DNA from: a virus | Length of the DNA: 64,000 nucleotides | Virus record (IMG/VR): IMGVR_UViG_3300021420_000016 | Location: 64,001-128,000 of that record | Direction: 5' to 3' (one strand) | Shown: positions 2,463 to 16,918 of the stretch, piece by piece | How the letters are laid out: each line of letters begins with the position of its first letter | Numbering within the stretch: position 1 is the stretch's first letter | The notes under the pieces: generated by a model | Seen by the model: the letters and a program-made list of their open reading frames with translations, nothing else | Database searches by the model: none | What the model was told of the DNA's origin: nothing | Position numbers and translations under genes: made by a program

Positions 2463-3983
2463 ATGCCGACCGAGATGCGACTAGCCCAGCGGGCGTTCCG
2501 GTTCGCCCTCGACCCCACCCCCCGGCAAGCCCGCATGTTCGCCTCCCATGCTGGCGGCGCCCGGTTCGCCTACAACTGGGGTAACGCGCAGATCATCGCC
2601 GCACTGGACGCCCGGCAAGCCGAGAAAGATGCAGGTGCCGAGCCGACGGTGAAGACGCCGTCCCATTTTGACCTGTGCAAGGCGTGGACGGCGTGGAAGA
2701 ACGAGCACGCCGCCGATCCCGAGCCCGCCGACGGTGAGCGGCGCACGAACACCGCCTGGGTCGCGGAGAACTTCGTCGGCACCTACCAGGCCGCGCTCCG
2801 GGACGCCGCGAAGGCGTGGTCGGACTTCTTCGCCTCCCGCTCAGGGAAGCGAAAGGGGCGCCGTCTCGGCCGACCCCGGTTCAAGAAGAAGGGCAAGTCC
2901 CGGGACTCGTTCCAGGTGCACGGCGGGACGCTGCGCATGGAGGACGCCGTGCACGTGACGCTGCCGAAGATCGGCACGATCACGGTGATGTCGGACGATT
3001 CCCTGCACCCGGCGATGCGGCGCAGCCGCGCCCGCGCCACCCACCTCGCGCCGCGGCACATGGGCAACCGGCGGCGCGCCCGGACGCTGTGGCGGGCCCT
3101 CCGGCGCGGCGGGGGCGCCCGGCTGATCCGCGGGACCGTCACGCGCGGCGCCGATGGCCTGTGGTGGCTGTCGCTGACCGCCGAAATCCCCCTGCAGGTG
3201 CGCGCGTCCCCGTCCCGCGCCCAGCAGGAGGGGGGGATGATCGGCGCCGACTTTGGGGTGCGCGAGGTCGCCACGTTCTCCAACGGGGTGACGATCCGCA
3301 ACTCGCGCCACCTGGAAGCCGCCCTGGCCGAGCTGCGGGCCGCGCAGAAGGCCCTGTCCCGGTGTCAGAAGGACTCCATGCGCCGCGAAAAGGCCAAAGC
3401 TCGCATTGGCGTAATCCACGCCGACGTGGCCCGGCTCCGCGAAACCGCCCTGCACCGGGCGACGACCGTCCTGGTCCGCCAGCACGACGTGATCGCAATG
3501 GAAGGCTGGGACGTGCAGCAGGTCATGCGCGGCGGCTCCAAGGACGTCCCCCGGCGGATCCGCCGGGACCGGAACCGGGCCCTGGCTGACACCGGGGTCG
3601 GGATGGCCCGGCAGATGCTTTCGTACAAGGGCCCGCAGATGGGTGCCATCGTGATGGTGACCGATCCGCAGGCCAAGACTGGGCGGACGTGCTCAGTGTG
3701 CAGGACGCCAAGAACCACGGCCCTGCCACCGCATCATGAGATGTTCACCAGCGATCAGTGCGGTCACGTCCTAGACCGGCGCCTCAACACGGCGCAGGCC
3801 CTCGCGGGCTGGGCCGCACAGGAGCTATCCAAGCGCGGGCCGGCGCCTGCCGGCCCGTCACGGCCTCGTGGAGGGAACGTAAGGCCTGCCGCTGACCGCA
3901 AGGTTGGCGGTGGGCGGTCCCCGGTGAAGCGAGCAGCCAGCACCCGGCTTGGCCGGGGTGAGCCTGGCACTCCCGGCGGGTAA
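2463..3983 (+). CDS. tnpB: TnpB/Cas12-like RNA-guided protein, predicted nuclease-inactive
   Basis: N-terminal AFRFALDPTPRQ...GARFAYNW; RuvC-I GADFG (D263); RuvC-II AMEGW (E347); CSVC knuckle; RuvC-III DRRLN instead of DRDxN; RBS AAGGAGG. Confidence 0.9.
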   Translation: MPTEMRLAQRAFRFALDPTPRQARMFASHAGGARFAYNWGNAQIIAALDARQAEKDAGAEPTVKTPSHFDLCKAWTAWKNEHAADPEPADGERRTNTAWVAENFVGTYQAALRDAAKAWSDFFASRSGKRKGRRLGRPRFKKKGKSRDSFQVHGGTLRMEDAVHVTLPKIGTITVMSDDSLHPAMRRSRARATHLAPRHMGNRRRARTLWRALRRGGGARLIRGTVTRGADGLWWLSLTAEIPLQVRASPSRAQQEGGMIGADFGVREVATFSNGVTIRNSRHLEAALAELRAAQKALSRCQKDSMRREKAKARIGVIHADVARLRETALHRATTVLVRQHDVIAMEGWDVQQVMRGGSKDVPRRIRRDRNRALADTGVGMARQMLSYKGPQMGAIVMVTDPQAKTGRTCSVCRTPRTTALPPHHEMFTSDQCGHVLDRRLNTAQALAGWAAQELSKRGPAPAGPSRPRGGNVRPAADRKVGGGRSPVKRAASTRLGRGEPGTPGG

Positions 3984-4020
3984 CTGCTGGGCGTCCCCAC
4001 ACTGCCCGGATCGGGCTGCC
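3850..4020 (+). ncRNA. candidate omega-RNA-derived scaffold / tracrRNA
   Basis: CGTGGAG...GTAAG...hairpin...GTGAAGCG...hairpins overlapping the tnpB 3' end, as in actinobacterial tnpB right ends; repeat-complementary segment at 3992-4016. Confidence 0.55.
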
Positions 4021-4064
4021 TAACTCAATAGCGGAATCGCTTACAAACGTACAGGTCAAGAAGT
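4021..4064 (+). promoter_or_regulatory. CRISPR leader (actinobacterial type I-E style)
   Basis: AT-richer segment ending AAACGTACAGGTCAAGAAGT directly before repeat 1. Confidence 0.7.
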
Positions 4065-4527
4065 GTCCGGTCCGCGAGCGCGGGGGCGACGGGTCTTCAG
4101 CGGGAAGGTGCAGCTCTGCGAGCAGGTCCGGTCCGCGAGCGCGGGGGCGACGGGTGTGGGTACTCTGCGCGGGTTCAGCACAGGTTGTCCGGTTCGCGAG
4201 CGCGGGGGCGACGGGATTACGGTGCGATGGAAGCCGAAACCTTCAACGTCCGGTCCGCGAGCGCGGGGGCGACGGGTGCCCTCTCGCGACAGAGGTCCTC
4301 AGCACAGCGCGTCCGGTCCGCGAGCGCGGGGGCGACGGGGGAGTGCACCCGGAATGGCCCGCGCCAAGCGCGTCCGGTCCGCGAGCGCGGGGGCGACGGG
4401 GCGCCGAACTGCGAATTCGGTAGGGGCGTGTGGTCCGGTCCGCGAGCACGGGGGGGGCGACGGTGCCTCAGTCCAGCGCCGCCGCCGATGAAGCGGGCGG
4501 TCCGGTCCGCGGGCGCGGGGGATCCGG
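4065..4527 (+). CRISPR. CRISPR array, 8 repeats / 7 spacers, type I-E-like repeat GTCCGGTCCGCGAGCGCGGGGGCGACGG(G)
   Basis: Repeats start at 4065, 4126, 4187, 4248, 4311, 4372, 4433, 4500; mostly 61-nt period; distal repeats degenerate. Confidence 0.97.
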
Positions 4528-4571
4528 AACTTCTTGCCGATCCGGAACTTCATGTGGTTGGGTTGGTAGCC

Positions 4572-4901
4572 ATGCGCGGTGCGGAGCCGACCAAGCCGAT
4601 TGAATTAGCGCGGGTGGCCGACCAGCTCACCTTTCTCTACGTCGAGCACGCCCGGGTGGACCGCGACGTCAATGCCGTGACCGTTCAGCAGGTCTCCGGG
4701 ATCGCTCATGTTCCGGTGGCCACCCTCGCTGCGTTACTACTGGGCCCGGGAACCCGGATCACCCACGCCGCGATCACGCTGCTTGCCGGAAGCGGATGTA
4801 GCGTGCTGTGGGCCGGCGAACAAGGCGTGCGCCTTTATGCGGGTGCGGCTCGGCGTCGTCAAGGGCGGCGGGTCGGCGCTGATGGTGATCGCCGACCATG
4901 A
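4572..4901 (+). pseudogene. cas1: type I-E cas1, 5' third only
   Basis: LTFLYVEHARVDRD.NAVT...VPVATLAALLLGPGTRITHAA...LWAGEQGVRLYA; homology stops near 4845, so the catalytic domain is absent. Confidence 0.9.
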
Positions 4902-5043
4902 CCGTGAGCAGGGATTCACGGTACTAGCTGCAGGTGAGGACCGGTGGGTTCCCGTCGACTTCGAGGGACTGGCCCTGATGGTCCGGCCGGCCCGGAGCGG
5001 CGCTCCCCCGGCCGTTTCGGATGGCCCTATGCAAGTCCGATAA
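4845..5043 (+). pseudogene. cas2: type I-E cas2, 3' half
   Basis: GSALMVIA...REQGF...WVPVDFEGLALMVRP in a different frame, without its N-terminus. Confidence 0.8.
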
Positions 5044-5063: not shown

Positions 5064-5348
5064 ATGAGTAGCAGATCAGCAGGCCCCAGCGGCGCCTACA
5101 CATCTGGTGATGGCAAGCGGAAATCCTCCATGGGTCACGCCCGTCACGCCTGGACGTGCCCCTGTGGCAAGACCGTCCGGGGCAACGGCGGCCGGGCGTC
5201 TCACCGCCGCGCCTGCGACATCTGGGCTGAGGAAGAACTAGCCCGGCTGAAGCGAATGCTCGCCGATGTTCCAGCCGCACAGTATGAGGTGCGGCGTCAA
5301 TGGGAGGCCCGGCGAGACCACCTGAAGGAAAGGCTTGGCCATGACTGA
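5064..5348 (+). CDS. small putative Zn-binding protein
   Basis: CPCG...HRRAC; overlaps recombinase start. Confidence 0.5.
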   Translation: MSSRSAGPSGAYTSGDGKRKSSMGHARHAWTCPCGKTVRGNGGRASHRRACDIWAEEELARLKRMLADVPAAQYEVRRQWEARRDHLKERLGHD

Positions 5349-6516
5349 GATCGCCCTGCAGGGCCAAGTCGTCCCGGCCGTCACGCAGCCCGGGGATCCC
5401 CGCAGCGAACTCCTCGCCAGGCTCACCGCCGCCTGGCTGACCCGGCAGGAATCCCCTCACACCCGCGTAGCGTACGAGCGCGATCTCCGCGACTGGCTCG
5501 CCTGGTGCGCCAGCCGGGAGGTTCATCCGCTGACCGCACGCATGAGCGACGTGGACGACTGGATCGCCGCACAGCGGGAGACGCCGGGCCGGCGCGGAGG
5601 CTCGGCTCCCAAGTACCCCGACGAGGCCATAGCTGCCGCATACGTGCGCTGGAAGGCCGGTAAAGCCCCCGGCGGCGTGCCTGTCTCCAAGGCCGCGCTG
5701 GCCCGGGAAATTGGCATGTTCCCCAATGCGCTCGCCAGCAGGTTCAGGAAACTGGAGCGCGACCTCACCGCAGGGACTCCGCAGGGCGCGTCCAAGCGGA
5801 GCATCGCCCGGCGCGTTTACGCCGTCCGGTCCTGGTACAAGTACCTGATCCGGAACACCCGAAGCGACCCGGTGCCGCTCATCGCCTACAATCCGGCGGA
5901 CACCGACGCCACTCCCAAGGTGAAGAAAGGCGACTCCCCCACCCGTGCGCTCAGCCGGGCCGAGGCCGACCGGCTCATCGCGGTCGCCGACGCCGACAGT
6001 CCCCGGTCCTCGGCGATCATCCGCCTCATGCTCACCAACGCTGACCGCCGCAGTTCTGTCGTGGCCATCGACATCCCCGACCTCGGCTGGGACCAGGGTC
6101 ACCGGACCGTTACCAGGCGCATCAAGGAAGGCCGGACAGTCCGTGACCCCATCCCCCCGCCGACCGCTCGCGCCATTGACGCCTACCTTGACTGGCGGGG
6201 CAACCCGCAAGACGGTCCATTGTTCGTCGCCAGTACCGGGAATCGGCTTAGTGACCAGCATCTGTACGACCTCGTGCCCCGGCTGGCCCGGGAAGCAGAT
6301 ATCCCGGACCCGGAAGAGGTCACCCCACACGGTCTGCGCGCCACCGCCATCACCGAAACGATCGTCGCCACCGGCGACATGTCCCTAGCCCAGGATCTCG
6401 CCCACCATCAGCACATGGACACCACGATGATCTACAACAAAGTCCGGGGGGATCTCGACCGCCACGCAGCGTATGTCCTCGCCACGCGGTACGGCGCCAA
6501 AGACGCGAGCGGCTAA
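5341..6516 (+). CDS. tyrosine recombinase (Xer/integrase family) with inserted HTH-like segment
   Basis: SPHTRVAYERDL N-domain; NADRRS; TPHGLRATAIT; LAHH..MDTTMIY. Confidence 0.9.
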   Translation: MTEIALQGQVVPAVTQPGDPRSELLARLTAAWLTRQESPHTRVAYERDLRDWLAWCASREVHPLTARMSDVDDWIAAQRETPGRRGGSAPKYPDEAIAAAYVRWKAGKAPGGVPVSKAALAREIGMFPNALASRFRKLERDLTAGTPQGASKRSIARRVYAVRSWYKYLIRNTRSDPVPLIAYNPADTDATPKVKKGDSPTRALSRAEADRLIAVADADSPRSSAIIRLMLTNADRRSSVVAIDIPDLGWDQGHRTVTRRIKEGRTVRDPIPPPTARAIDAYLDWRGNPQDGPLFVASTGNRLSDQHLYDLVPRLAREADIPDPEEVTPHGLRATAITETIVATGDMSLAQDLAHHQHMDTTMIYNKVRGDLDRHAAYVLATRYGAKDASG

Positions 6517-6560: not shown

Positions 6561-6632
6561 GCGTAAAAGGGAAGGCGCGGCCGGGCACCCTCGGAGTGTG
6601 TCCGGCCGCGCCCGTTTCCCGCGTTTTTACGC
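6561..6632. terminator. long hairpin between convergent recombinase and TROVE genes
   Basis: GCGTAAAA..GGCGCGGCCGGGCAC / GTGTCCGGCCGCGCC..TTTTACGC. Confidence 0.6.
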
Positions 6633-8315
6633 GGCCCGTTCGGCCGATGGCAACAGCCACGGCCAGGTCGCGTCGTGTGAGGCCTCCAGAATGGGGATCA
6701 GGCGGAAGGCGTTGTCGGTAAGCCCGCCCATGGTGTGCCGGTTCCCGCCACCCGAAGGCAGTCCCCCAGTCTTGTACCCGCCGAAGTTCCACAGGTACAC
6801 CGGCACGTGCCGCGGGATCAGGTCATCAATCCTGGTCGACGGCATGCCGCCCGCGAAGTGACAGTTCGACGGCAGGTACCCCGGGGAGGTCTGCTCGTCG
6901 GTGACGATCACCACCCGGTCGTGGTAACCGGCGCGGAAATGCTGCCGCACCGCCGTGGGGATGTCGGTCCCCCACTGCCCCGTGGTGAGCCGCTCCACCA
7001 GCTTGAGCACCGACTCGCCCTGGGTGAACCGCACGGCGGCGTTCACGCCGCGGCCGGTGTCCTGGCCCCAGAACTCCACCAGGTCGGCGTGGGCGGCGCG
7101 CAGGGCGATGGCTGCGGCGAACACGGCCGCCCCGTCGGCCCAGGACATGTCGGAGTGCTCGGACATGTTCTGGTGCCACATCGACGGCGACCGGTCCACC
7201 AGCACCAGCGTGCGGCCCGCCAGCGCGGGCACGTTCGCCAGCGAGTGGCCGAGGCCCTGCTCCAGCGGCCAGCCCCACCGCAGCGACGGGGCGTGCCGGT
7301 AGGCGGCGAGGAACCGGAACGGGAACAGCCGCGACCTGGCCACCCGGTCGGGGTCAGCCAGTTTCGCCGCGACCTCCGCCGCCACCGAGTCCGGGACGCC
7401 GGCCTGGTCGAAGTTCCGCAGGTTCTTCGCCAGCGCGCCCAGGCCCATCATCGGGATCGCCGCAGTCCACGCCTCGCGGGTCATCGGGCCCTGCAGCCAC
7501 CCGGCGAGGGCCTCCCACGTCATCCCCGCATCACGCAGATCCTGAGTTGCCTCCGGCCGGTTCAGCCACGCACGCCGTGCACCCTCCGGCATGGCCATCA
7601 GGGCGTGCCGGCGGCGGATCGTCGCCAGCACCTCCGGGACCGGGTTGCCCCGGTCGTGGCGCCGCTCGATCGCATACCGGTAAAGTGCTTCGCGCCACGT
7701 GCCGTACGCCCTGCGGTGATACCGCGGGTTGACGAGTTCGATAACGTCACCGAATCGCACTGCCGCCTCGTCGGTGTCGTACTTCAGCAGGGCGAACTCG
7801 TTGTAGAGGCGGTGGATCCCGTCGGCGAGGCCCCGCTTGAGCCCGATCGGCATCTTCCGGCCGTAGTTCGCCAGCCAGTAGGCGGTCAGCTCCCCCGGCT
7901 CGTCGGCGCGCTGCAGCACCGAGTCCACCACCGGCCGCGGGAACGTGGCGACGCCCACTTCCCGGCCCGTGCCGGCCTCGTCGCGGCGCGCCCAGGTGAA
8001 CTCCGCCGCGCCGATCACCGGCGCCAGGCGCAGGTTCCCGTCGCCGCGCAGCCACCCGAGCAGGCCGGCCGTCCATGCGGGGTCGGCGGCCGCCATCTCG
8101 CGGACGAGGTGACGGTAGCGCTTCACCCGGGCGTCGCGGCCCTCGTGGAACGCCCTCTCCCCCGGCAGGTTGCACGCCGCCAGGAGGAACAACTCGGACT
8201 GACCCTCGCGGGCATACCCGGGGGCACCCAAGGCGGTACGGCCGGACGGCCCCGGGCCGCTCACGACCGGGCTGGACGCGGCGGCACGGACAGGACCGCG
8301 GTTGAACTTGCTCAT
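6627..8315 (-). CDS. rsr: Ro60/Rsr-like TROVE + vWA RNA-binding protein
   Basis: VLQRADEPGE, MTWEAL, KNLRNFDQAG, SRLFPFRFLAAY; MIDAS VDRSPSM and IVTDEQ; start at MSKFN with upstream RBS. Confidence 0.92.
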   Translation of the reverse strand: MSKFNRGPVRAAASSPVVSGPGPSGRTALGAPGYAREGQSELFLLAACNLPGERAFHEGRDARVKRYRHLVREMAAADPAWTAGLLGWLRGDGNLRLAPVIGAAEFTWARRDEAGTGREVGVATFPRPVVDSVLQRADEPGELTAYWLANYGRKMPIGLKRGLADGIHRLYNEFALLKYDTDEAAVRFGDVIELVNPRYHRRAYGTWREALYRYAIERRHDRGNPVPEVLATIRRRHALMAMPEGARRAWLNRPEATQDLRDAGMTWEALAGWLQGPMTREAWTAAIPMMGLGALAKNLRNFDQAGVPDSVAAEVAAKLADPDRVARSRLFPFRFLAAYRHAPSLRWGWPLEQGLGHSLANVPALAGRTLVLVDRSPSMWHQNMSEHSDMSWADGAAVFAAAIALRAAHADLVEFWGQDTGRGVNAAVRFTQGESVLKLVERLTTGQWGTDIPTAVRQHFRAGYHDRVVIVTDEQTSPGYLPSNCHFAGGMPSTRIDDLIPRHVPVYLWNFGGYKTGGLPSGGGNRHTMGGLTDNAFRLIPILEASHDATWPWLLPSAERAA

Positions 8316-8358
8316 CCTCGCACGCCCCCTTTCGCTGGGGCTCCAGGCGGGAGAGGTA

Positions 8359-8524
8359 ACCTTCATGAATGACATGCCCGACAACGAATCGGCCCACGGG
8401 ACATAAGCGCTCTGCCAGTTGAGCTACGCCCCCAAAGTGGAGGCGACAGGACTTGAACCTGTAACCACTCGATCCACAATCGAAGTACCGCGAACCTGCA
8501 CTTCGGGCATGCCTTCATGAAGTT
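8359..8524 (-). ncRNA. Y RNA 1 (YrlA-like, permuted tRNA-like domain)
   Basis: CCCGAAGTGCAGG...GCCGATTCGTTGTCGGG closing stem; internal order T-arm, closed acceptor-like hairpin, D-arm. Confidence 0.85.
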
Positions 8525-8529
8525 GTACC

Positions 8530-8672
8530 CCCCCCCGACAACGAATCGGCGACGGTAACCGGGGCCGGATTCGAACCGGCGGCCTCCGCCCTTCCGGGCG
8601 GCGCTCTACCAACTGAGCTACCTCGCAAAATGGGTTGGCTGCGAGAAGTAACCGTTGCCTGCACTTCGGGGA
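8530..8672 (-). ncRNA. Y RNA 2 (D-arm, GGAA-capped arm, T-arm)
   Basis: Same terminal motifs; TAGCTCAGTTGGTAGAGC, CCGCCC-GGAA-GGGCGG, GGTTCGAATCC. Confidence 0.8.
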
Positions 8673-8697
8673 GAAGTGCTTTATTTAGTTTATGTCC

Positions 8698-8806
8698 TTC
8701 CCGACAACGGATCGGCGGCGGCTGCGCGGGATTCGAACCCGCAACCTTCAGCTACTGTGACTGATTTCGATCCAATTCGAAGTAGCCGTCTCCTGCACTT
8801 CGGGAA
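8698..8806 (-). ncRNA. Y RNA 3 (T-arm only)
   Basis: Same terminal motifs plus TACTTCG; GCGGGTTCGAATCCCGC. Confidence 0.78.
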
Positions 8807-8889
8807 AGTATTCCCAGAGCCTAGCGAACCGGCAATGCGTGGCGCATCCCGTTTTCGCGTGACCCTGATCACAGCGCGAGCACCCTTTG

Positions 8890-8961
8890 AGTCGGCGGCG
8901 GGAATTGAACCCGCGTGCGCAGCTTTGCAGGCTGCTACCTCTGCCACTCGGCCACGCCGAC
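8890..8961 (-). tRNA. tRNA-Cys(GCA)
   Basis: cloverleaf, loop CT-GCA-AA. Confidence 0.92.
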
Positions 8962-8963
8962 AC

Positions 8964-9039
8964 GGTGAGCGAGGCGGGATTCGAACCCGCAGCCTTCTTC
9001 TTAGGAGGAAGTTGCTCCATCCCGTTGAGCTACCCGCTC
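8964..9039 (-). tRNA. tRNA-Arg(CCT)
   Basis: loop CT-CCT-AA. Confidence 0.9.
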
Positions 9040-9108
9040 GCGGGAACGCCTGGCGACCGCTATGCGTGATCCTTTACCCCCACCGTTTGAAGCTGGGTCC
9101 AGGCGTTC

Positions 9109-9182
9109 GGCGTCCCCGGCGTGACTCGAACACGCGCGCACGGCTCCGGAGGCCACAGCTCTATCCACTGAGCTACGGGGAC
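9109..9182 (-). tRNA. tRNA-Arg(CCG)
   Basis: loop CT-CCG-GA. Confidence 0.9.
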
Positions 9183-9183
9183 T

Positions 9184-9268
9184 TGGTGGCAGGTCCAGGG
9201 TTCGAACCTGGGTAGGCTGAGCCGGCGGTTTTACAGACCGCTCCCTTTGGCCGCTCGGGCAACCTGCC
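9184..9268 (-). tRNA. tRNA-Tyr(GTA)
   Basis: loop CT-GTA-AA, long variable arm, CCA. Confidence 0.95.
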
Positions 9269-9269
9269 T

Positions 9270-9347
9270 TGGGGAGCCCGGCCGGATTTGAACCGGCGAC
9301 GACACGGACCACAACCGTGTGTTCTGCCTGGCTGAACTACAGGCTCC
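9270..9347 (-). tRNA. tRNA-His(GTG)
   Basis: loop TT-GTG-GT, G-1, CCA. Confidence 0.93.
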
Positions 9348-9348
9348 A

Positions 9349-9423
9349 TGGTGGGTGATGATGGGATCGAACCATCGGCCTCTGTCGTGTGAAGGCAGCG
9401 CTCTGCCACTGAGCTAAACACCC
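9349..9423 (-). tRNA. tRNA-Val(CAC)
   Basis: loop TT-CAC-AC, CCA. Confidence 0.9.
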
Positions 9424-9511
9424 CTGCCAGGTCTTGATTTAAGTTCCGGGAATGCTTATTGTTTCCTTGCTACTAAAACCCTTAGCAAGTAGCACGGAAA
9501 GGGACACCTCA

Positions 9512-9655
9512 ATGGGCAGGAACAAAATCGTTGCAACTTGCGCCGCAATCTTTTTCGCGGCCGGGATGGCCGCCCCGGTTATCGCCGCAGCCACACCCGC
9601 CGTGCACGCCGTGGCAGACGGCAGTGGCGGCCCCGACATGTACCACCACAGCTGA
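9512..9655 (+). CDS. 47-aa secreted peptide precursor
   Basis: RBS GGAAAGGGA; signal-peptide-like N-terminus, short polar tail GSGGPDMYHHS. Confidence 0.65.
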   Translation: MGRNKIVATCAAIFFAAGMAAPVIAAATPAVHAVADGSGGPDMYHHS

Positions 9656-9716
9656 CCGTCCCCCAGGCCGTCTGCGGTCCCGAGCCCCCGGCGGGGCCGC
9701 AGACCCCTAAAATAAG

Positions 9717-9789
9717 TGCGCTCGGAGGGACTCGAACCCCCAACAAACTGCTCCGTAGGCAGTTGCTCTATCCGTTGAGCTACGGGCGC
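9717..9789 (-). tRNA. tRNA-Arg(ACG)
   Basis: loop CT-ACG-GA. Confidence 0.93.
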
Positions 9790-9800
9790 ATGGTATCGCG

Positions 9801-9873
9801 TGGGCGTACCTGGGATCGAACCAGGGATCCTCTGCCGTGTCGAGACAGCGCTCTGCCGCTGAGCTACACGCCC
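9801..9873 (-). tRNA. tRNA-Val(GAC), C33
   Basis: loop TC-GAC-AC. Confidence 0.88.
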
Positions 9874-10382
9874 ACCGTTACTTCCAGGCCAATCTCGGCG
9901 GCCTGCCCAGCGATCTTCTCCGGCAGTTCCCAGCCGAGCCGGGCCAGCCGCTGCACTGCCTGCCGGGCACCATTCCCGGCCCGGCCCGCTAGGTTCACGT
10001 TCTCCAGTGCCTCGTTCATCATGTCCTCCATCCCCCGGTCGGTCACCATGAACGGAATCACGTTGAACAGCACGACCGCCGCCGCAGCGCCGGTGAGAGT
10101 CCACCGGCCGGTGGATGGCTGGACGCCGATCTCGCAATGGATATGCGCCTCGCCGCAATGCTCGGCGCAGCCCCGCTTGTCCCACTCCTTGCCCGGACGG
10201 GGAGGCCGCGGCTCCGCGTTGCTGTCGGTGAGCCGGCACAACTCCCTGATCACGCTCAGGTAAGAAGAGTCGACCCGCAGCACCAGTTGCGGCGTCGCCC
10301 GGGTGAGGTTGTCCTTCCGGTGGATGCGGCCCTGCATGTCCAAGATGGCCGCCATCCAGGCCAGCTTCTCGGCAGGGACCAT
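9864..10382 (-). CDS. LAGLIDADG-like homing endonuclease-related protein (degenerate motif)
   Basis: LAWMAAILDMQGRI...LVLRV...VIRELCRL. Confidence 0.55.
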   Translation of the reverse strand: MVPAEKLAWMAAILDMQGRIHRKDNLTRATPQLVLRVDSSYLSVIRELCRLTDSNAEPRPPRPGKEWDKRGCAEHCGEAHIHCEIGVQPSTGRWTLTGAAAAVVLFNVIPFMVTDRGMEDMMNEALENVNLAGRAGNGARQAVQRLARLGWELPEKIAGQAAEIGLEVTVGV

Positions 10383-10408
10383 AAACCTCAGCCTAGCGCC
10401 GTGATACG

Positions 10409-10483
10409 CGGGACAGGCGGGATTCGAACCCGCGGCCTCCACCTTGACAGGGTGGCGAGCACTCCTGACTGCTCCACAGTCCC
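10409..10483 (-). tRNA. tRNA-Asp(GTC)
   Basis: loop CT-GTC-AA. Confidence 0.93.
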
Positions 10484-10598
10484 ATGATTCCGGTCGCGGC
10501 CCCGCAGGCTATCGCGCCTCACCTGCGGTCAGCGGACGGCGAACCCGCCTATGTTTGCCCACCGGAACTGCACCAGCCAGATGCAGGTGTTGGAAAAC

Positions 10599-10673
10599 GG
10601 CTCCCGAGGAAGGGCTCGAACCTTCAACCTGCCGGTTAACAGCCGGACGCTCTGCCGATTGAGCTACCCGGGA
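10599..10673 (-). tRNA. tRNA-Asn(GTT)
   Basis: loop CT-GTT-AA. Confidence 0.93.
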
Positions 10674-10814
10674 ATGAGAAAGAAGCCCCGCCTACACGGA
10701 GCGCCCCGACGGCACTCCCGCCCTTATGCTGCCGTCGCAGCCCCATGGGCACTTGGTCCGCGGCCCGCGCGCCCTGCCTTCGGGTCAAGCCCGTACATCC
10801 TCAGCGGAACTTCG

Positions 10815-10888
10815 TAGCGGGGGGCGGATTTGAACCGCCGTCCTCTGGGTTATGAGCCCAGCGAGCTACCGAACTGCTCCACCCCGCG
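10815..10888 (-). tRNA. tRNA-fMet(CAT)
   Basis: 5' CGCGGGG, C1 unpaired, GGG/CCC anticodon stem. Confidence 0.92.
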
Positions 10889-10976
10889 TCGCATGTGAGA
10901 TTTCCCGGCCACCTGGCCAACTCAGGTACCCACAACGGCCTCTCTACGGCTGACACTGATCACGCTACCACATTCG

Positions 10977-11052
10977 TGGTGGCTCCAGTCAGATTCGAAC
11001 TGACGCCGTCTCCTTGAAAGGGAGGTGACCTGGGCCGCTAGTCGATGGAGTC
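10977..11052 (-). tRNA. tRNA-Glu(TTC)
   Basis: loop CT-TTC-AA, CCA. Confidence 0.88.
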
Positions 11053-11053
11053 G

Positions 11054-11126
11054 TATCCCGGGAGGGATTCGAACCCCCGCCGCCACCTTGAGAGAGTGGC
11101 ATCCTAGGCCGCTAGACGACCGGGAC
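11054..11126 (-). tRNA. tRNA-Glu(CTC)
   Basis: loop CT-CTC-AA. Confidence 0.92.
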
Positions 11127-11138
11127 ATGTACTTTACG

Positions 11139-11211
11139 TGCGCCGCCGCGGACTCGAACCGCGAGCCGTCTCCTTAGAGGGGAGCCGCTCTATCCATTGA
11201 GCTAGCGGCGC
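11139..11211 (-). tRNA. tRNA-Arg(TCT), C33
   Basis: loop CC-TCT-AA, A20 in D-loop. Confidence 0.85.
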
Positions 11212-11371
11212 TGGCCGCGTCTCCGATTTCCCGGCGGACGGCTTGCTTCTCGCGTGCACGCTGAGCGCGCCGGCCGATCTCCTTCATACCGGGCTTGTAA
11301 CCCGGGTCGTGACCGGGGCAGCACCAATTCTGGTCGTGGGCACTGCGGGCCCGGCCGAGCATCCTTGCCAT
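11174..11371 (-). CDS. small basic Cys-containing protein, similar to N-terminus of 55181..55636
   Basis: MARMLGR..CC..RRAQRAREK vs MAKMLGR..CRC..RRARKRAEA; upstream GGAGG. Confidence 0.5.
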   Translation of the reverse strand: MARMLGRARSAHDQNWCCPGHDPGYKPGMKEIGRRAQRAREKQAVRREIGDAASAASSMDRAAPL

Positions 11372-11394
11372 GGGGCGCATCCTCCGGTTAGGGG

Positions 11395-11895
11395 CTATGC
11401 CGCTTCGCGCAGAGTGCGCATTCCGCGAGTGCCAGGCGTCTCACCCCGGCGAACCCGGCCATCGTATTTGGCTTGGCGGCATAGACCGCAGCGGCATCCG
11501 CGACCGTATTCCGCTTGAGAACCGTGGCCCTTTCGCTGAAGTTGCGGCCACGGGCGTTCGACACGCTGCTCGGCTAGGTCAGTGACCGTTTTCCGGTGAT
11601 GATGCGCGCCACATAGAACTTGGCACCCTTCAAGCTCCTCAAGGAACTTCACTTCTGCGATCGACCATAGTCTCGCTAGGTCGATCTCTTTGGCGCGCCA
11701 ATCAATGTGGTCGATCTCCAGGTCGGCGGTGCCGCCGCACTCGGCACAGGCGCCGCCTAGCAGCGCGATGGCTCGATCCCGTCGTTCGTGGTAGCGCCGG
11801 AGCATGTAATCGCGCATGTAGCCGTTGTAGCAGTCGCGACATCTCTTGCCGTTGGCATACTCCCTGACGGGCCTGCCGCACTGGTTGCAACACAT
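11395..11895 (-). CDS. HNH endonuclease
   Basis: CAECG..LEIDHID...CQVLCGAHH; TATAAT 6 nt before ATG (leaderless). Confidence 0.88.
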   Translation of the reverse strand: MCCNQCGRPVREYANGKRCRDCYNGYMRDYMLRRYHERRDRAIALLGGACAECGGTADLEIDHIDWRAKEIDLARLWSIAEVKFLEELEGCQVLCGAHHHRKTVTDLAEQRVERPWPQLQRKGHGSQAEYGRGCRCGLCRQAKYDGRVRRGETPGTRGMRTLREAA

Positions 11896-11910
11896 GTTCG
11901 AATTATATGC

Positions 11911-11986
11911 GGTGCCCCGCCTCGGATTCGAACCGAGAACCCGCGGATTAAAAGTCCGCTGCTCTAAGCCGTTGAGCTAGCAGGGC
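11911..11986 (-). tRNA. tRNA-Lys(TTT)
   Basis: loop CT-TTT-AA. Confidence 0.93.
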
Positions 11987-12043
11987 GTGGGGCTGGGTAT
12001 TCGTACGACCTGTTTCTCGCGCATCGTTTCCTCCTTTCCGGGG

Positions 12044-12120
12044 GGTAGGCCGGGCGGGGGTCGAACCCGCACATCTTCCGCTTATAAGGCGGCTGCCGTC
12101 ACCCTGTTGGCCACCGGCCT
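12044..12120 (-). tRNA. tRNA-Ile(TAT)
   Basis: loop CT-TAT-AA, discriminator A. Confidence 0.85.
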
Positions 12121-12126
12121 CCTGAG

Positions 12127-12198
12127 TAGCGAGAGGGGATTCTGCCACCCCGGCCTCTCCGTTATGGGCGGAGCGCTCTCCTTCTGAGCTATCCCGCT
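12127..12198 (-). tRNA. tRNA(CAT) Met/Ile2, C33, aberrant T-loop
   Basis: loop CC-CAT-AA; T-arm GGGGTGGCAGAATCCCC lacks TTC. Confidence 0.7.
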
Positions 12199-12213
12199 GG
12201 GTCCCCGTGGGGG

Positions 12214-12289
12214 TGGTGGGCCTAGGTGCTTTTGGGACACCGACCTCCCGGTTATCAGCCGGACGCTCTTACCTCTGAGCTACAGGCCC
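12214..12289 (-). tRNA. tRNA-Ile(GAT), aberrant T-loop
   Basis: loop CT-GAT-AA; T-arm GGTGTCCCAAAAGCACC; CCA. Confidence 0.75.
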
Positions 12290-12290
12290 T

Positions 12291-12382
12291 TGGAGGAGGG
12301 TGCGAGATTCGAACTCGCGAGACGAGTCCCCCCGTCTAGCCGTTTTCGAGACGGTGCCGTAGGCCACTCCGGTCAACCCTCC
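12291..12382 (-). tRNA. tRNA-Ser(CGA)
   Basis: loop CT-CGA-AA, long variable arm, CCA. Confidence 0.88.
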
Positions 12383-12387
12383 ACAAG

Positions 12388-12476
12388 CGGAGTGACAAGG
12401 ATTCGAACCTTGGAGGGGCTTGCGCCCCAACGGCGTTAGCAGCGCCGCGCCATAGGCCAGACTAGGCGACCACCCC
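12388..12476 (-). tRNA. tRNA-Ser(GCT)
   Basis: loop CT-GCT-AA, long variable arm. Confidence 0.92.
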
Positions 12477-12554
12477 ATTGTGCGGTGGGCGGGGACAGGC
12501 GGACCCGCTGGTACGCGCAGACCAGCATGGCCGTGATCTCCCCGCCTCACTGCG

Positions 12555-12630
12555 TAGCGCTCGTCGGATTCGAACCGACACTGTCGCGGACCTGAACCGC
12601 GCGCCTCCTACCATGTTGGGCTAGAGCGCC
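12555..12630 (-). tRNA. tRNA-Leu(CAG), short variable region
   Basis: loop TT-CAG-GT. Confidence 0.85.
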
Positions 12631-12735
12631 TGGCCAGGGATCAGGCCGGTGCCGTCTGGCTCACGCTGCCTTCCCGGCACCGCCGGCTCCGCAGTCAGCG
12701 TGATGGGGATAACCGTGTGGCGCCTGATCCCTTAG

Positions 12736-12808
12736 AGCGGACGGCCGGGATCGAACCGGCGACTTCAACCTTGGCAAGGTTGCGCTCTGCCAACTGAGCC
12801 ACGCCCGC
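12736..12808 (-). tRNA. tRNA-Gly(GCC)
   Basis: loop TT-GCC-AA. Confidence 0.95.
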
Positions 12809-12818
12809 ATGTATTTCG

Positions 12819-12890
12819 AGCGGAAGACGGGGATCGAACCCGCAACCCCGACCTTGGGAAGGTCGTGCTCTGCCATTGAGCCACTTCCGC
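12819..12890 (-). tRNA. tRNA-Gly(CCC)
   Basis: loop TT-CCC-AA. Confidence 0.94.
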
Positions 12891-12891
12891 A

Positions 12892-12967
12892 TGGAGCCCG
12901 ACCGGGGAATTGAACCCCGCCTACGGCCTTACCAAGGCCGGGTGCTTACCGCTATCACTAGCCGGGC
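12892..12967 (-). tRNA. tRNA-Thr(GGT)
   Basis: loop TT-GGT-AA, CCA. Confidence 0.9.
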
Positions 12968-12971
12968 GAAG

Positions 12972-13042
12972 CTGGGGGAGCTGGGGTCGAACCAACGTTC
13001 CAGGGACCAAAGCCCCGTGTCCTGCCTTTAGACGATCCCCCA
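12972..13042 (-). tRNA. tRNA-Gln(TTG)
   Basis: loop CT-TTG-GT. Confidence 0.9.
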
Positions 13043-13043
13043 T

Positions 13044-13121
13044 TGGAGCCGGCCATCGGGCTTGAACCGATCACCTGCCGCTTACAGGGCGGCTGCTCTG
13101 CCTGCGATGAGCTAGGCCGGC
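13044..13121 (-). tRNA. tRNA-Thr(TGT), C33
   Basis: loop CC-TGT-AA, CCA. Confidence 0.88.
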
Positions 13122-13187
13122 GTGATCCTGGCAGGCACCGCAGGCGACCTTTGGCGCCGCAGTGAGGCCTGCCCTGCCAAGGAATCG

Positions 13188-13262
13188 TGTGCTCGGAGGG
13201 ACTTGAACCCTCAACATCCGGCACCTCGGGCCGACCTCTCTGCCACATTGGAGTACGAGCAC
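13188..13262 (-). tRNA. tRNA-Leu(GAG), C33, short variable region
   Basis: loop CC-GAG-GT. Confidence 0.85.
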
Positions 13263-13335
13263 TCAGTCAGTTCTTAGGCCAGCCGTATGGTGGGTATGAC
13301 TCATCCCAACGATACCGATCGCAGGGAGCGCCCCC

Positions 13336-13572
13336 GTGGATGAGCCCAATCTCACTCTCCCCGAAGCCCAGGAGCAACTACCGGCGATCTGCCAGCGGTT
13401 CGCTGCCGACCCAGGAACCCGGGATGCCGTTGTAGTGACAGACGCCGATGGCCCAGTGGCCGTGATCATCCCCTGGCGGAGGTACCGGGCCTGGGCCGGC
13501 CTCGGGGGGGAGACCCTGATGCCCGTTCACCAAAACGGCCGCCTGATAGCGGTTGTCCGGGACTGCGGCTGA
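13336..13572 (+). CDS. Phd/YefM-like orphan antitoxin-fold protein
   Basis: LTLPEAQEQLPAIC...AVVVT..GPVAVIIP. Confidence 0.5.
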   Translation: MDEPNLTLPEAQEQLPAICQRFAADPGTRDAVVVTDADGPVAVIIPWRRYRAWAGLGGETLMPVHQNGRLIAVVRDCG

Positions 13573-13575
13573 CTG

Positions 13576-13650
13576 GGAGCCCGATGCCGGGGTCGAACCG
13601 GCGACCTCCGCGGTACGAAGGCGGCGCTCTACCGACTGAGCTAACCGGGC
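13576..13650 (-). tRNA. tRNA-Thr(CGT)
   Basis: loop TT-CGT-AC, C31-C39 mismatch. Confidence 0.85.
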
Positions 13651-13802
13651 GTGGCTGCCCCGCGTACGCCGGTTCGGCGGGGCGCACCAGGGCGGGAGAA
13701 TCCGGGGCCGTGCGATCAGCCGCCCAAGATCGCCTCGATCTTCCATGTTCCCGGTGATCAACTCCGGGTGGGCCCCTGCGCCAGTGCCGGCCAGTTACCT
13801 TC

Positions 13803-14477
13803 TTAGGGATTCCTGGCCGCTGATGCAACCGGCGCTGCTCCCGGAGCTGGGGTCGAACCAACTACGGGACTTACCGCTTCCGGGGCTGGACTCGAACCAG
13901 CGAGGACAGGGGCCAGAACCCTGCTGGGGACGCCGCCGCCCCACCCGGAATCAAGTCGGCCCGAACGGATAGCCGTACGGATCCGATGACAATTAGCGCA
14001 AACTATGTCACACTTCGCGATCTCAGCAAGGATTCTGCTCCATGACCAGCGGGTAAGCACGGCACTTATGTTGCCCAGCTTGTCATCCCCATCCCTGTGG
14101 TCGTAATCCATAACACAAGGGGGGAACCGGCCACCGCAATCAGCGCACGGGACGTCTTTCAATGCGTCGAGTCGCTGCCGGTTCGCCTCGTATCGTTGCC
14201 GGTTGCGGTCCAGATATACCTGCTTGTTGTCGTTGTACCACCGTTGCTTCGCCGCCCGCTGTGCTTCTTTGTTACGGCCGGCACCGGTCCCTTTCTTCCA
14301 CCGGACCCCGAGAAAATGTGAAGTATCCAGGCCCAGCTCTGCGGCTACCGCCCTGATTCTGTGGTATGAACTACCTCCGTCAGCCTTAAGTCCAAGCGCT
14401 CGGGCTACCTGGCCCCAAGTCGTGGATTGAGTGATGGCATCAGCTAGATCGCCGTCGGACCATGACCTGGTTCTCAT
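13803..14477 (-). CDS. HNH endonuclease inserted in tRNA-Gln
   Basis: PCADCG...MDYDHRD...KCDIVCANCHRIRT; TATACT 7 nt before ATG. Confidence 0.88.
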   Translation of the reverse strand: MRTRSWSDGDLADAITQSTTWGQVARALGLKADGGSSYHRIRAVAAELGLDTSHFLGVRWKKGTGAGRNKEAQRAAKQRWYNDNKQVYLDRNRQRYEANRQRLDALKDVPCADCGGRFPPCVMDYDHRDGDDKLGNISAVLTRWSWSRILAEIAKCDIVCANCHRIRTAIRSGRLDSGWGGGVPSRVLAPVLAGSSPAPEAVSPVVGSTPAPGAAPVASAARNP

Positions 14478-14561
14478 GCCTGCCAGTATACGGCAAGGTG
14501 TAGGGCTCTAGTCGCTTCGTCTGATCCAGAGTCAGGTGTCCTGCCATTGGACGATCCGGGA
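13838..14561 (-). pseudogene. split tRNA-Gln(CTG): 5' part 14520-14561, 3' part 13838-13866
   Basis: TCCCGGA acceptor strand pairs with TCCGGGA about 650 bp downstream; halves join into a complete cloverleaf. Confidence 0.8.
13877..13950 (-). tRNA. tRNA-Gln(CTG), atypical D-arm, inside the HNH insertion
   Basis: TTCCGGG/CCCGGAA acceptor, loop TT-CTG-GC, GGTTCGAGTCC. Confidence 0.7.
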
Positions 14562-14565
14562 TTAG

Positions 14566-14647
14566 TGCGGGACGAGGGATTTGAACCCTCACGCCCTCTC
14601 GGGCACACGGACTTGAGCCGTGCGTGTCTGCGTTTCACCAGCCCCGC
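14566..14647 (-). tRNA. tRNA-Leu(CAA)
   Basis: loop CT-CAA-GT, long variable arm. Confidence 0.9.
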
Positions 14648-14653
14648 TGGCCT

Positions 14654-15442
14654 TCAAAACGCCTTCCGCATTTCCTCGATCAGGGCCAGCGATTGCGGCG
14701 CGTTCAGGGCTATGCTTTGCAGCCAATCCGCTTGCGCGCGGAACCGGTCCAGGTCTGCGGTGTGGTCCTGGTACCTGTCTTCTCTCTCGGAGAAGACCAT
14801 CGGGGGCAGTTCGCCGGCGAAATCCAGGATCGTGAAGTTCGGCGCCGGGGAGGAGATCAGCGCCGCGCGGAACGGGACTACCCGCACGATGGCGCCTTCG
14901 CCGGCAAGGTTCAGGATGTGCCCGAGCTGGTCGGCCATGATGTCGGCGCCGGGGTGGCGCTGCAGGACCGCCTCATCCAGGAGGAACGTTGTGGGGATCT
15001 TCCCCACCAGTACCTGCCGGGCTTCACGCACCTGCGGGTACGGCCGGCCGGCGGCCTGGTCGTAGTTTGCGGTGCGCAGCAGCGCGGGGATTACGTCGCG
15101 GGCGAGGCAGACGAGGGACTCGGCGTTTTGCTCCAGGCTGAGGTACAGGACCGACCGGTCGTTGCTGATCGGCTCTATCCTCCACGGGTCTTTCTCCCGG
15201 CCGCGTCTCACGGCGGCAAGGAGCTCCGCCGCGGTGGCCTGGTCGGCGCCGTAGACGAGGCACATGGAGCGGACTGTGCGCCCGTCGGCGAGCCGGTCGC
15301 CGGTTTCGGTGCGGCTGACCGTGGCCATGGAGCACAGCAGTTCGGCTGCGGCCTGCTCGATCGTCATGCCCGCTGCGGTGCGCAGTTCGCGCAGGCGGGC
15401 GGCGAGTTTCATCTGGGCTACGGCGGGGCTGTCACTTGCCAT
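14654..15442 (-). CDS. XRE HTH + DUF5753-type regulator
   Basis: LAARLRELRTAAGMTIEQAA..SMATVSRTETG; IPALLRTANY; LDEAVL. Confidence 0.82.
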   Translation of the reverse strand: MASDSPAVAQMKLAARLRELRTAAGMTIEQAAAELLCSMATVSRTETGDRLADGRTVRSMCLVYGADQATAAELLAAVRRGREKDPWRIEPISNDRSVLYLSLEQNAESLVCLARDVIPALLRTANYDQAAGRPYPQVREARQVLVGKIPTTFLLDEAVLQRHPGADIMADQLGHILNLAGEGAIVRVVPFRAALISSPAPNFTILDFAGELPPMVFSEREDRYQDHTADLDRFRAQADWLQSIALNAPQSLALIEEMRKAF

Positions 15443-15487
15443 GTGGCACATATACCCTGCACCGGGCATTTTGCACGTAACCTATCG

Positions 15488-15559
15488 TGCGCCGCCAGGG
15501 GATCGAACCCCGGACCCGCCGATTAAGAGTCGGCTGCTCTACCACTGAGCTAGCAGCGC
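15488..15559 (-). tRNA. tRNA-Lys(CTT)
   Basis: loop CT-CTT-AA. Confidence 0.95.
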
Positions 15560-15560
15560 C

Positions 15561-15634
15561 TGGAGCGGGTGAAGGGGATCGAACCCTCATGACCAGCTTG
15601 GAGGGCTGGGGCTCTGCCATTGAGCTACGCCCGC
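15561..15634 (-). tRNA. tRNA-Gly(TCC), C33
   Basis: loop CC-TCC-AA, CCA. Confidence 0.9.
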
Positions 15635-15643
15635 ATTGACTTT

Positions 15644-15720
15644 TGGTGGCCACTCTCCGAGTCGAACGGAGGCCCTCTCACTTTTCAGGCGAGCGCTCAT
15701 ACCAACTGAGCTAAGCGGCC
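15644..15720 (-). tRNA. tRNA-Phe(GAA)
   Basis: loop CT-GAA-AA, CCA. Confidence 0.92.
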
Positions 15721-15724
15721 ATAG

Positions 15725-15796
15725 TCGGGATGGTCCGAACCGAACGGACGCCCTTCTGCTCCCAAAGCAGACGCTCTTCCACTGAGCTACACCCCG
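15725..15796 (-). tRNA. tRNA-Pro(TGG)
   Basis: loop TT-TGG-GA. Confidence 0.88.
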
Positions 15797-15801
15797 AATC
15801 G

Positions 15802-15876
15802 TCGGGACAGACCGATTTGAACGGCCGGCCTCCGGCTCCCCGAGCCGGCGCTCTAACCAAGCTGAGCTATGCCCCG
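15802..15876 (-). tRNA. tRNA-Pro(GGG), C33
   Basis: loop TC-GGG-GA. Confidence 0.88.
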
Positions 15877-16062
15877 GTTACGCCACGTGTTTCCAGGTGC
15901 GCCCACACCGAATATCGCTGATCGTGGCCTTGTGAACTCCCAGCAGTTTGGCAAGGGCAATCCCCCGACGCATGAGCCGTTCGCGGCCAGCCACTTGGCT
16001 CTCCTGGCAGCGACCCACTCCCGCATGTACTTTCGCTGCCGCTCAGGATCGGCATAAGGCAT
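15853..16062 (-). pseudogene. HNH endonuclease N-terminal remnant
   Basis: MPYADPERQRKYMREWVAARRAKWL..GSCV resembles the start of 11395..11895; no HNH core. Confidence 0.55.
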
Positions 16063-16104
16063 GCGAACGGTATATCGCAGTTAGCCCTTTGACCTGTACT
16101 CTTG

Positions 16105-16182
16105 TGGTCGGGATGGGGTGATTCGAACACCCGGCCTCCTCGTCCCGAACGAGGCGCGCTGACCAAGCTGCGCCACATCCCG
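16105..16182 (-). tRNA. tRNA-Pro(CGG)
   Basis: loop TT-CGG-GA, CCA. Confidence 0.94.
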
Positions 16183-16414
16183 TTTGCCGGTTCCCTCCCA
16201 GGGCGTGCCGCCAGTGCAGGCAGAGAACGTTCCGTCCCCTTGCCGGAAAGAGGGACCCAGGCCCCTCGCGCGTCCGGGCGGGGAGACTTCCCCGGGGGCG
16301 GACTGTGATGCGCATTGCACGGCGGTCCCTGGTTGCCGGATCAGCCCTCCGCAGTTTGCTGTGTGGTACGTCACTTCTGCGAGCGATATCCGGCCCGGCT
16401 AGCGGGGACCGTAG

Positions 16415-16487
16415 TGGAGTTACAGGGACTCGAACCCTGGGCCTCCGCGTTGCGGGCGCGGCGCTCTCCCGGCTGAGCTATAACCCC
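16415..16487 (-). tRNA. tRNA-Ala(CGC), C33
   Basis: G3:U70, loop CC-CGC-AA. Confidence 0.9.
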
Positions 16488-16585
16488 TCAAGCGTGGTGG
16501 CCTCCGGTTGTTTGTCCCTTATTTAGCAGGGAGAGCCACGTATTCCCCGGAGGTTGCCCCCGGCGCCAGTCCGGGACCCCCCTTG

Positions 16586-16658
16586 TGGAGCTACGCGGAT
16601 TCGAACCGCGGACCCTCTCGATGCCATCGAGATGCTCTGCCAACTGAGCTATAACCCC
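16586..16658 (-). tRNA. tRNA-Ala(GGC)
   Basis: G3:U70, loop AT-GGC-AT. Confidence 0.93.
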
Positions 16659-16845
16659 ATCTGGGCGGTTAGAACTGCCGCTCCCCCACTGGCCCAGAGT
16701 GGGCCGGCGGGATCATCGACGGGCAGAGACCACCCACGCGGGACTTATGGCCGCCCGCCTTTTCGTTTGGTGCTCACGCTATGCAAGTTTCAACCACCGG
16801 GCGGGTTCACCAGCCTTACCTCTCGGTCGCGCTGGTGCCGCTTCG

Positions 16846-16918
16846 CCCGGACGGAGGGACTCGAACCCTCAACCAACGGTTTTGGAGACCGTCACTCTTC
16901 CAATTGAGCTACGTCCGA
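16846..16918 (-). tRNA. tRNA-Trp(CCA)
   Basis: loop CT-CCA-AA. Confidence 0.92.

Follow-up and report, generated by a model that had tools for sequence, protein, structure and literature searches.

The DNA analysed here (the window) is the 64,000-nt stretch at bases 64001-128000 of IMG/VR record IMGVR_UViG_3300021420_000016, a large actinobacterial phage of 154 kb that is 98% complete. It carries a gene for a TnpB/Cas12n-like effector, followed in the same orientation by a CRISPR array and then by remnants of type I-E adaptation genes. The arrangement had been picked out from the bases and their open reading frames (ORFs), without database searches, in what we call the sequence-only reading.

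The effector gene (2463..3983, +) encodes a protein of 506 amino acids (aa) with Pfam matches to HTH_OrfB_IS605, OrfB_IS605 and Cas12f1-like_TNB, and a strong Shine-Dalgarno sequence, AAGGAGG, lies about 8 nt 5' of its ATG. The upstream ORF (1965-2456) has no Pfam match, the effector gene is present in a single copy in the 154-kb genome, and Pfam analysis of the neighbouring genes, in the window and at the relatives' loci inspected, found no TnpA. The AlphaFold model of the effector has a predicted local distance difference test score (pLDDT) of 78, with a disordered tail at residues 459-506 (pLDDT <50), and the predicted fold matches TnpB, Cas12f and RdCas12n.

The array (4065..4528, +) begins 81 nt past the effector stop codon and consists of eight repeats of 28-29 nt and seven spacers of approximately 32-33 nt. 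The repeats start at 4065, 4126, 4187, 4248, 4311, 4372, 4433 and 4500, giving a period of 61 nt, and their consensus terminates in GGGGGCGACGG followed by G; six are clean and the last two, distal to the effector, are degenerate. Beyond the array, a cas1e remnant comprising only the first 89 codons (4572..4838, +; tblastn against the intact Cas1 of relative L077, 81% identity, E 9e-46) is joined out of frame to a cas2e remnant holding the C-terminal part from about aa 42 (4834..5043, +; Pfam PF09707, 27.2 bits; tblastn, 73% identity). As judged from these reading frames, the phage's own adaptation genes are dead. A Pfam search of the whole 154-kb phage gave no match to Cas6e, Cas7e or Cse1; cas3 was not searched for separately.

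These results bear out the features listed in the sequence-only reading, namely a TnpB-family ORF of 506 aa with its own ribosome-binding site and no transposase, an array of eight repeats in 29 + 32 geometry after its stop codon, fragments of cas1 and cas2, no recognisable Cascade or cas6 gene, and a phage-like carrier.

Relatives of the effector and their arrays

Homologues were collected by a search of 5.8 billion proteins together with metagenome and viral scans, and their DNA context was inspected. Linkage between gene and array was counted in 31 non-redundant relatives that have downstream DNA and are 39-85% identical to the effector. An array with the 61-nt period lies 55-107 nt past the stop codon in 25 of the 31; two further contigs end inside the first repeat, a single repeat-like unit is present in three relatives (L082, L087 and L090), and two (L097 and L118) have no array. 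A second tally places the array in the window and 24 relatives. In the relatives at 81-85% identity (L074, L076 and L077) the array begins 82-85 nt past the stop, and a downstream array is likewise carried by relatives at 43-77% identity and by the most divergent member found, L130 (39%). The gene neighbourhoods of the relatives are varied, yet the stop-to-array spacing is kept across the range of 39-85% identity. With an array at this spacing in 25 of the 31 relatives, the link between gene and array is not due to chance. The close homologues are thus the opposite of array-free insertion-sequence TnpBs: nearly all have an array directly downstream, the I-E-type geometry is kept in the 25 relatives counted above, and some have intact Cas1e-Cas2e.

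Intact cas1 follows the array in at least five relatives (L077, L083, L099, L114 and the P0006 contig), four of which (L077, L083, L114 and the P0006 contig) also have intact cas2. NCBIfam models identify these proteins as Cas1e (TIGR03638, 343.6 bits, cut-off 215.6) and Cas2e (TIGR01873, 51.4 bits, cut-off 33.15). L074, like the window, holds only cas1/cas2 remnants, and loss of the adaptation genes recurs in relatives that retain effector and array. The repeats vary by locus and every one ends GGGG-R-Y-G-A-C-G-G. L078 and L093, whose effector 3' ends are 95% identical, have zero spacers in common, so spacers turn over. A sample of 400 actinobacterial genomes contained one relative, indicating that the family is rare in cultured genomes.

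Of 122 units, 75 have a G directly following the 28-nt repeat, and later positions are near uniform. Type I-E systems acquire spacers beside an AAG protospacer adjacent motif (PAM), and the last PAM base enters the array; the G after the repeat matches acquisition of this kind. The degenerate repeats of the window lie at the cas1 side, from which new spacers would be expected to enter at the effector-proximal end.

Several relatives depart from the common arrangement. The three with a single unit (L090:4527-4640, L087:2350-2400 and L082:6713-6860) have the scaffold described below and one repeat-like unit ending GGGG(A/T)(T/G)G(A/G)CGGG; two are in bacterial chromosomes and one is in a 383-kb contig, and all three may represent the same effector in a natural single-guide form. 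A natural target was sought for the single-unit relative in genome G262, and the only matches found had 3 mismatches and no AAN motif and were judged to be chance. In L080 (343-366), the first inter-repeat unit of a short array matches a site upstream on the same contig at 24 of 24 nt, which may represent self-targeting. The array of L103 (6835-7830) has duplicated spacers (4=11, 7=9, 8=13), a pattern suggestive of blocks having been duplicated inside it, and that of L089 (4584-5930), on a 284-kb contig, has approximately 22 units with heavily degenerate repeats and looks like a decaying array.

Guide-RNA scaffold and anti-repeat

Our alignment of 23 loci starts 170 nt inside the ORF, extends to the first repeat and shows strong nucleotide-level conservation. 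In these loci, RNAalifold and pair counts delimit a scaffold resembling a trans-activating CRISPR RNA (tracrRNA) that overlaps the 3' end of the ORF (3856..3998, +). It has nested helices at 3865-3933 and 3936-3968, a hairpin spanning the stop codon (3972-3991) and an anti-repeat, CGTCCCC, at 3992-3998. RNAalifold gave 46 pairs with compensatory changes in 28; by pair counting, 95% of cells are paired, against 34-47% when the partners are slid, and none of 500 shuffles equalled the covariation. The anti-repeat helix joins 3992-3998 to repeat positions 18-24 and is paired in 94.4% of cells, against 45-70% with partners slid. Compensatory changes occur in five of its seven pairs, with 0/500 shuffles equalling the observed covariation score; covarying anti-repeat and repeat sequences include CATCCCC with GGGGATG, TGCCCCC with GGGGGCA and CGTCCG with CGGACG. 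The presence of a tracrRNA-like scaffold with an anti-repeat in the effector 3' end is supported by these comparisons. A Cas6e-type I-E hairpin inside the repeat, by contrast, is 71-76% paired and its covariation was not above that of shuffles. Since the anti-repeat covaries and the Cas6e hairpin does not, selection appears to maintain a tracr:repeat duplex and not a Cascade-type CRISPR RNA (crRNA).

Between the scaffold and the array lies a small GC hairpin, GCCCG/CGGGC (4004..4016, +), the arms of which change together across loci; the segment is missing from 8 of the 23. Pairing of 4007-4016 with repeat nt 1-10 could extend the anti-repeat in this phage, where it is strong (-18.5 kcal, z -2.7), but it is not conserved and was rejected as a feature of the family. 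The junction that follows (4021..4064, +) is conserved and consists of the motif CTAACTCAATAG and then CAGGTCAAGAAG abutting the first repeat. The sequence-only reading had described the array as preceded by a leader; a conserved junction does precede it, but the 81 nt between stop codon and array are largely the 3' part of the scaffold.

The same array could be read as a phage 'mini-array' for the Cascade and Cas3 of a host I-E system, with the TnpB-like gene a mere inherited neighbour. Repeat length, spacer length and Cas1e/Cas2e are all of I-E type, and the phage repeats can be aligned in register with those of actinobacterial I-E arrays recovered from a GTDB genome scan with the repeat core. 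That scan recovered many I-E arrays, whose repeats all differ from that of the phage by more than 6 mismatches, and a repeat pattern scan of IMG/VR did not find the same repeat elsewhere. The 3' handle of the phage repeat (xGACGG) is unlike those of the recovered actinobacterial I-E repeats, the Cas6e hairpin has not been maintained, the anti-repeat that covaries with the repeat lies in the effector transcript, and the spacing from stop codon to array is kept across 39-85% identity; we regard a mini-array as very improbable.

The scaffold also bears on whether this is an ordinary IS607 or IS605 TnpB that inserted at an array, so that its omega-RNA guide happens to be the first repeat. The protein is TnpB-like by Pfam and NCBIfam and the scaffold abuts repeat 1, but the IS607_TnpB score of 256.8 bits falls below the NCBIfam cut-off of 350 bits, the gene is single-copy with no TnpA, no array-free mobile copies are found among its close relatives, and repeats and anti-repeats co-evolve. 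An insertion of this kind is hardly credible. Decay is another explanation to be weighed for this phage, in which the out-of-frame cas1/cas2 fossil and the two degenerate repeats might mark the module as a relic without current function. However, the effector ORF, the scaffold helices, the anti-repeat and six repeats are intact, and relatives that have lost their adaptation genes still keep effector and array, and we consider it quite unlikely that the module is a relic.

RuvC site and proposed mode of action

The effector keeps RuvC-I D263 and RuvC-II E347, and its RuvC-III motif reads LDRRLNTA, with R440 at the position of the catalytic Asp of Cas12n and TnpB. The first two catalytic residues of RdCas12n (D287, E386, D484) align to D263 and E347, and D484 aligns with R440, which rules out D438 as the third residue of the triad. 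R440 is invariant in 31 family members, in which position 438 is D or P. Homologues down to approximately 39% identity all carry (D/P)RRxN(T/S)A, and more distant ones carry DRDxNAA. The RR proteins form a single monophyletic clade on a long branch, with SH-like support of 100, in a tree computed without the named AcCas12n and RdCas12n sequences. Because the whole clade has Arg where the RuvC-III catalytic Asp would be, we infer that the effector likely binds DNA without cutting it. Within the branch containing core V-U4 proteins, P0144, P0148, P0153, P0155, P0175, P0193 and P0217 have G, S, N or H at the RuvC-III Asp, which may have been lost more than once among Cas12n-like proteins.

Alternatively, the same effector, tracr and array could operate with an effector that is still a nuclease, cutting like Cas12n through a non-canonical RuvC site formed by D263, E347 and another group. 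Both acidic residues are invariant in 31 of 31 sequences. Surveys of type V proteins describe conserved RuvC-III changes and repeated inactivation, with the possibility that some activity persists (PMC10691335, PMC12669027), RuvC-III replacements such as Asp to His occur in branches thought to be active (PMC10691335), and the authors of the TldR work caution that single-residue changes can give spurious inactivation calls. On the other hand, Arg is unable to coordinate the catalytic metal, no other invariant acidic residue is present past position 350 (12 of 31 sequences have Pro at position 438), and the second zinc knuckle has Ser in place of one Cys, a Cys that is lost in the window's subclade. 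We judge it unlikely that the effector cuts.

The reading we favour, with a probability of roughly 0.72, is that the locus represents a phage-encoded type V module of the Cas12n kind, with an array derived from type I-E and an effector most likely binding its targets. Several observations weigh against it. The effector matches the V-U4 (Cas12u4) profile over its full length at 284 bits (E 7.5e-85), and the RR-clade proteins score 284-322 bits, against 509-677 bits for core members. The invariance of D263 and E347 bears on the binding component, as does the view of Altae-Tran et al. that some nuclease activity may persist in proteins whose RuvC-III alterations are conserved (PMC10691335). The two distal repeats are degenerate and the phage's own adaptation genes are dead. 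No protospacer was recovered: the spacers blasted against the whole phage and all collected loci gave nothing beyond chance, array regions compared with INPHARED gave no protospacer beyond chance, and an exact scan of IMG/VR with three of the window spacers found none. Finally, the relatives have phage-like contexts in common, and vertical inheritance could explain part of the linkage.

The sequence-only reading had proposed a hybrid class 1/class 2 locus formed when a TnpB captured an I-E array and adaptation module. This reading is supported, in that nearly all relatives have arrays of I-E-type geometry, some have intact Cas1e-Cas2e and the scaffold anti-repeat covaries with the repeat, but the locus is not a fresh capture by this TnpB; by these comparisons it belongs to a conserved lineage of some age that is related to Cas12n/V-U4. 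The further proposal that a domesticated TnpB uses I-E-derived crRNAs gains support from the arrays and the covariation, with crRNA use itself an extrapolation from them.

On the evidence of the compared loci, production of the RNAs, loading of the crRNA, binding without cleavage and the nature of the targets can be set out as follows. The locus would be transcribed from the effector promoter or from the junction region, and the 3' end of the effector mRNA with the next ~35 nt would encode the tracrRNA-like scaffold. The anti-repeat at 3992-3998 would pair with positions 18-24 of each 29-nt repeat in the pre-crRNA, leaving the last ~5 nt of the repeat (ACGGG) to precede the spacer-derived guide, and the effector would load a guide whose 5' part comes from the repeat and whose 3' part comes from the spacer. 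The complex of effector, tracr and crRNA would then recognise spacer-complementary DNA with a PAM, probably A-rich, and would block transcription or replication of the target as Cas12m or TldR do, cutting being less likely; the likely setting is a conflict with other mobile elements or the regulation of genes of the host. The array with its 28 + 33 geometry would derive from type I-E. In relatives, the linked Cas1e-Cas2e presumably insert spacers at the effector-proximal end, and in this phage, with cas1 and cas2 reduced to a fossil, the seven spacers would be frozen unless a host I-E system adapts the array in trans.

On the path from TnpB to CRISPR effectors, Cas12n is considered the first step, and it is usually depicted without adaptation genes. 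With the same architecture physically joined to Cas1e-Cas2e, the lineage gives a concrete example of class 1 adaptation serving a class 2 effector, a link that may account for why Cas12n has an odd, A-rich PAM. The invariant change from Asp to Arg offers a natural test of binding-only action in compact effectors; if the protein is a compact binder of ~500 aa, it could have practical interest. Being carried by phages, the family also joins the small number of CRISPR systems known to be phage-owned and used when mobile elements come into conflict. More tentatively, and at less than even odds, the clade could be a type V lineage in its own right, either sister to Cas12n or an offshoot from it, in which a catalytically altered DNA binder with its own I-E-derived Cas1e-Cas2e resides on large actinophages. 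Phages would then own an adaptive silencing system, and the clade would be a naturally occurring class 1/class 2 hybrid showing how TnpB-derived effectors recruit adaptation machinery.

Phage setting and comparison with known systems

The phage has a GC content of 64-73%, and the one nucleotide match it has among isolated phages falls in a Ro-like gene that large Streptomyces phages carry. A tyrosine recombinase gene (5335-6516) lies directly 3' of the CRISPR module, and integrases are also found beside the module in L074, L076 and L082; these flanking integrases hint that the module is located at a recombination hot spot. Further downstream, a Ro60/TROVE gene (6627-8384, -) is followed by three tandem repeats of ~160 nt (8482-8806), one of which contains a tRNA-like element (8556-8627; Rfam tRNA, 44 bits) in which ARAGORN found no clear anticodon. 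From its sequence, the region 6627-8806 looks like a phage Ro and Y-RNA (YrlA-like) module. The 38 tRNA genes clustered at 8557-16918 are all encoded on the minus strand and between them cover almost every amino acid.

The locus differs from IS200/IS605/IS607 TnpB elements in having no TnpA, a single gene copy and an array in the guide position. With type I-E systems it shares Cas1e/Cas2e, repeats of 28/29 nt, spacers of 32/33 nt and a G-rich first spacer position, but the phage lacks Cse1, Cas7e and Cas6e matches, the repeat hairpin is not conserved, and the order here is effector-array-cas1-cas2. Cas12m (V-M) and TldR offer a likeness in possible RNA-guided binding that blocks transcription, and TldRs are also phage-borne. 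TldRs, however, have one fixed guide with no array or Cas1-Cas2, and usually lose at least two catalytic residues or have a truncated C-terminus, whereas one of three is replaced here.

Cas12r, from Thermus Lalka phages, is a phage-encoded TnpB-like effector with a short array and an A-rich PAM, whose authors propose reliance on I-E adaptation (preprint 10.64898/2026.04.20.719267). Both systems combine a phage-borne TnpB-like effector with 29-nt I-E-like repeats and 32-33-nt spacers. Cas12r is tracrRNA-independent, has an active RuvC, belongs to another TnpB branch and has loci without adaptation genes, whereas the phage locus has a supported tracr anti-repeat and its relatives have physically linked cas1e-cas2e.

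Among solved structures, the closest by sequence is RdCas12n (9J09; E 9e-36 with the protein, 3.5e-64 with the family profile), followed by ISDra2 TnpB (E 2e-22 and 6e-47, respectively); the match to Cas12m is far weaker (E 2e-8 with the profile). In Cas12n systems the tracrRNA lies within the ORF 3' end, the C-terminal tail is disordered, a few bases left unpaired come after the anti-repeat stem, and the PAMs are A-rich (PMC12216341; preprint 10.64898/2026.03.27.714800), and AcCas12n favours 5'-AAG (PMC12216341). The phage locus resembles Cas12n (type V-N, formerly V-U4 or C2c9; RdCas12n, PDB 9J09, and AcCas12n) in its TnpB-like effector of ~500 aa, its actinobacterial association, the tracrRNA in the ORF 3' end, the anti-repeat:repeat stem with a few unpaired bases, the array directly downstream and the disordered tail, here residues 459-506. 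It differs in that the phage protein falls in a separate monophyletic clade with about half the core V-U4 profile score, that R440 replaces the RuvC-III catalytic Asp of Cas12n and leaves the D-E-D triad incomplete, and that several of its relatives have linked Cas1e-Cas2e genes. No adaptation module of Cas12n is described in the literature surveyed; Chen et al. 2023 and the TranC paper fall outside that survey and may mention the clade or a cas1-cas2 link. For the core V-U4 protein P0149, which scores 677 bits with the V-U4 profile, the CAGGTC..GAAG junction of the phage locus recurs right before an I-E-like repeat; at L129 (4500-4565), the locus of a core V-U4 protein with a DRD motif and the same junction motif, the stop codon lies inside the conserved CAGGTCGTGAAG junction, with an I-E-like repeat 5 nt later. 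I-E-like repeats may be general to Cas12n and, given that a core V-U4 protein has the same junction and an I-E-like repeat, CRISPR association is probably common to this clade and Cas12n.

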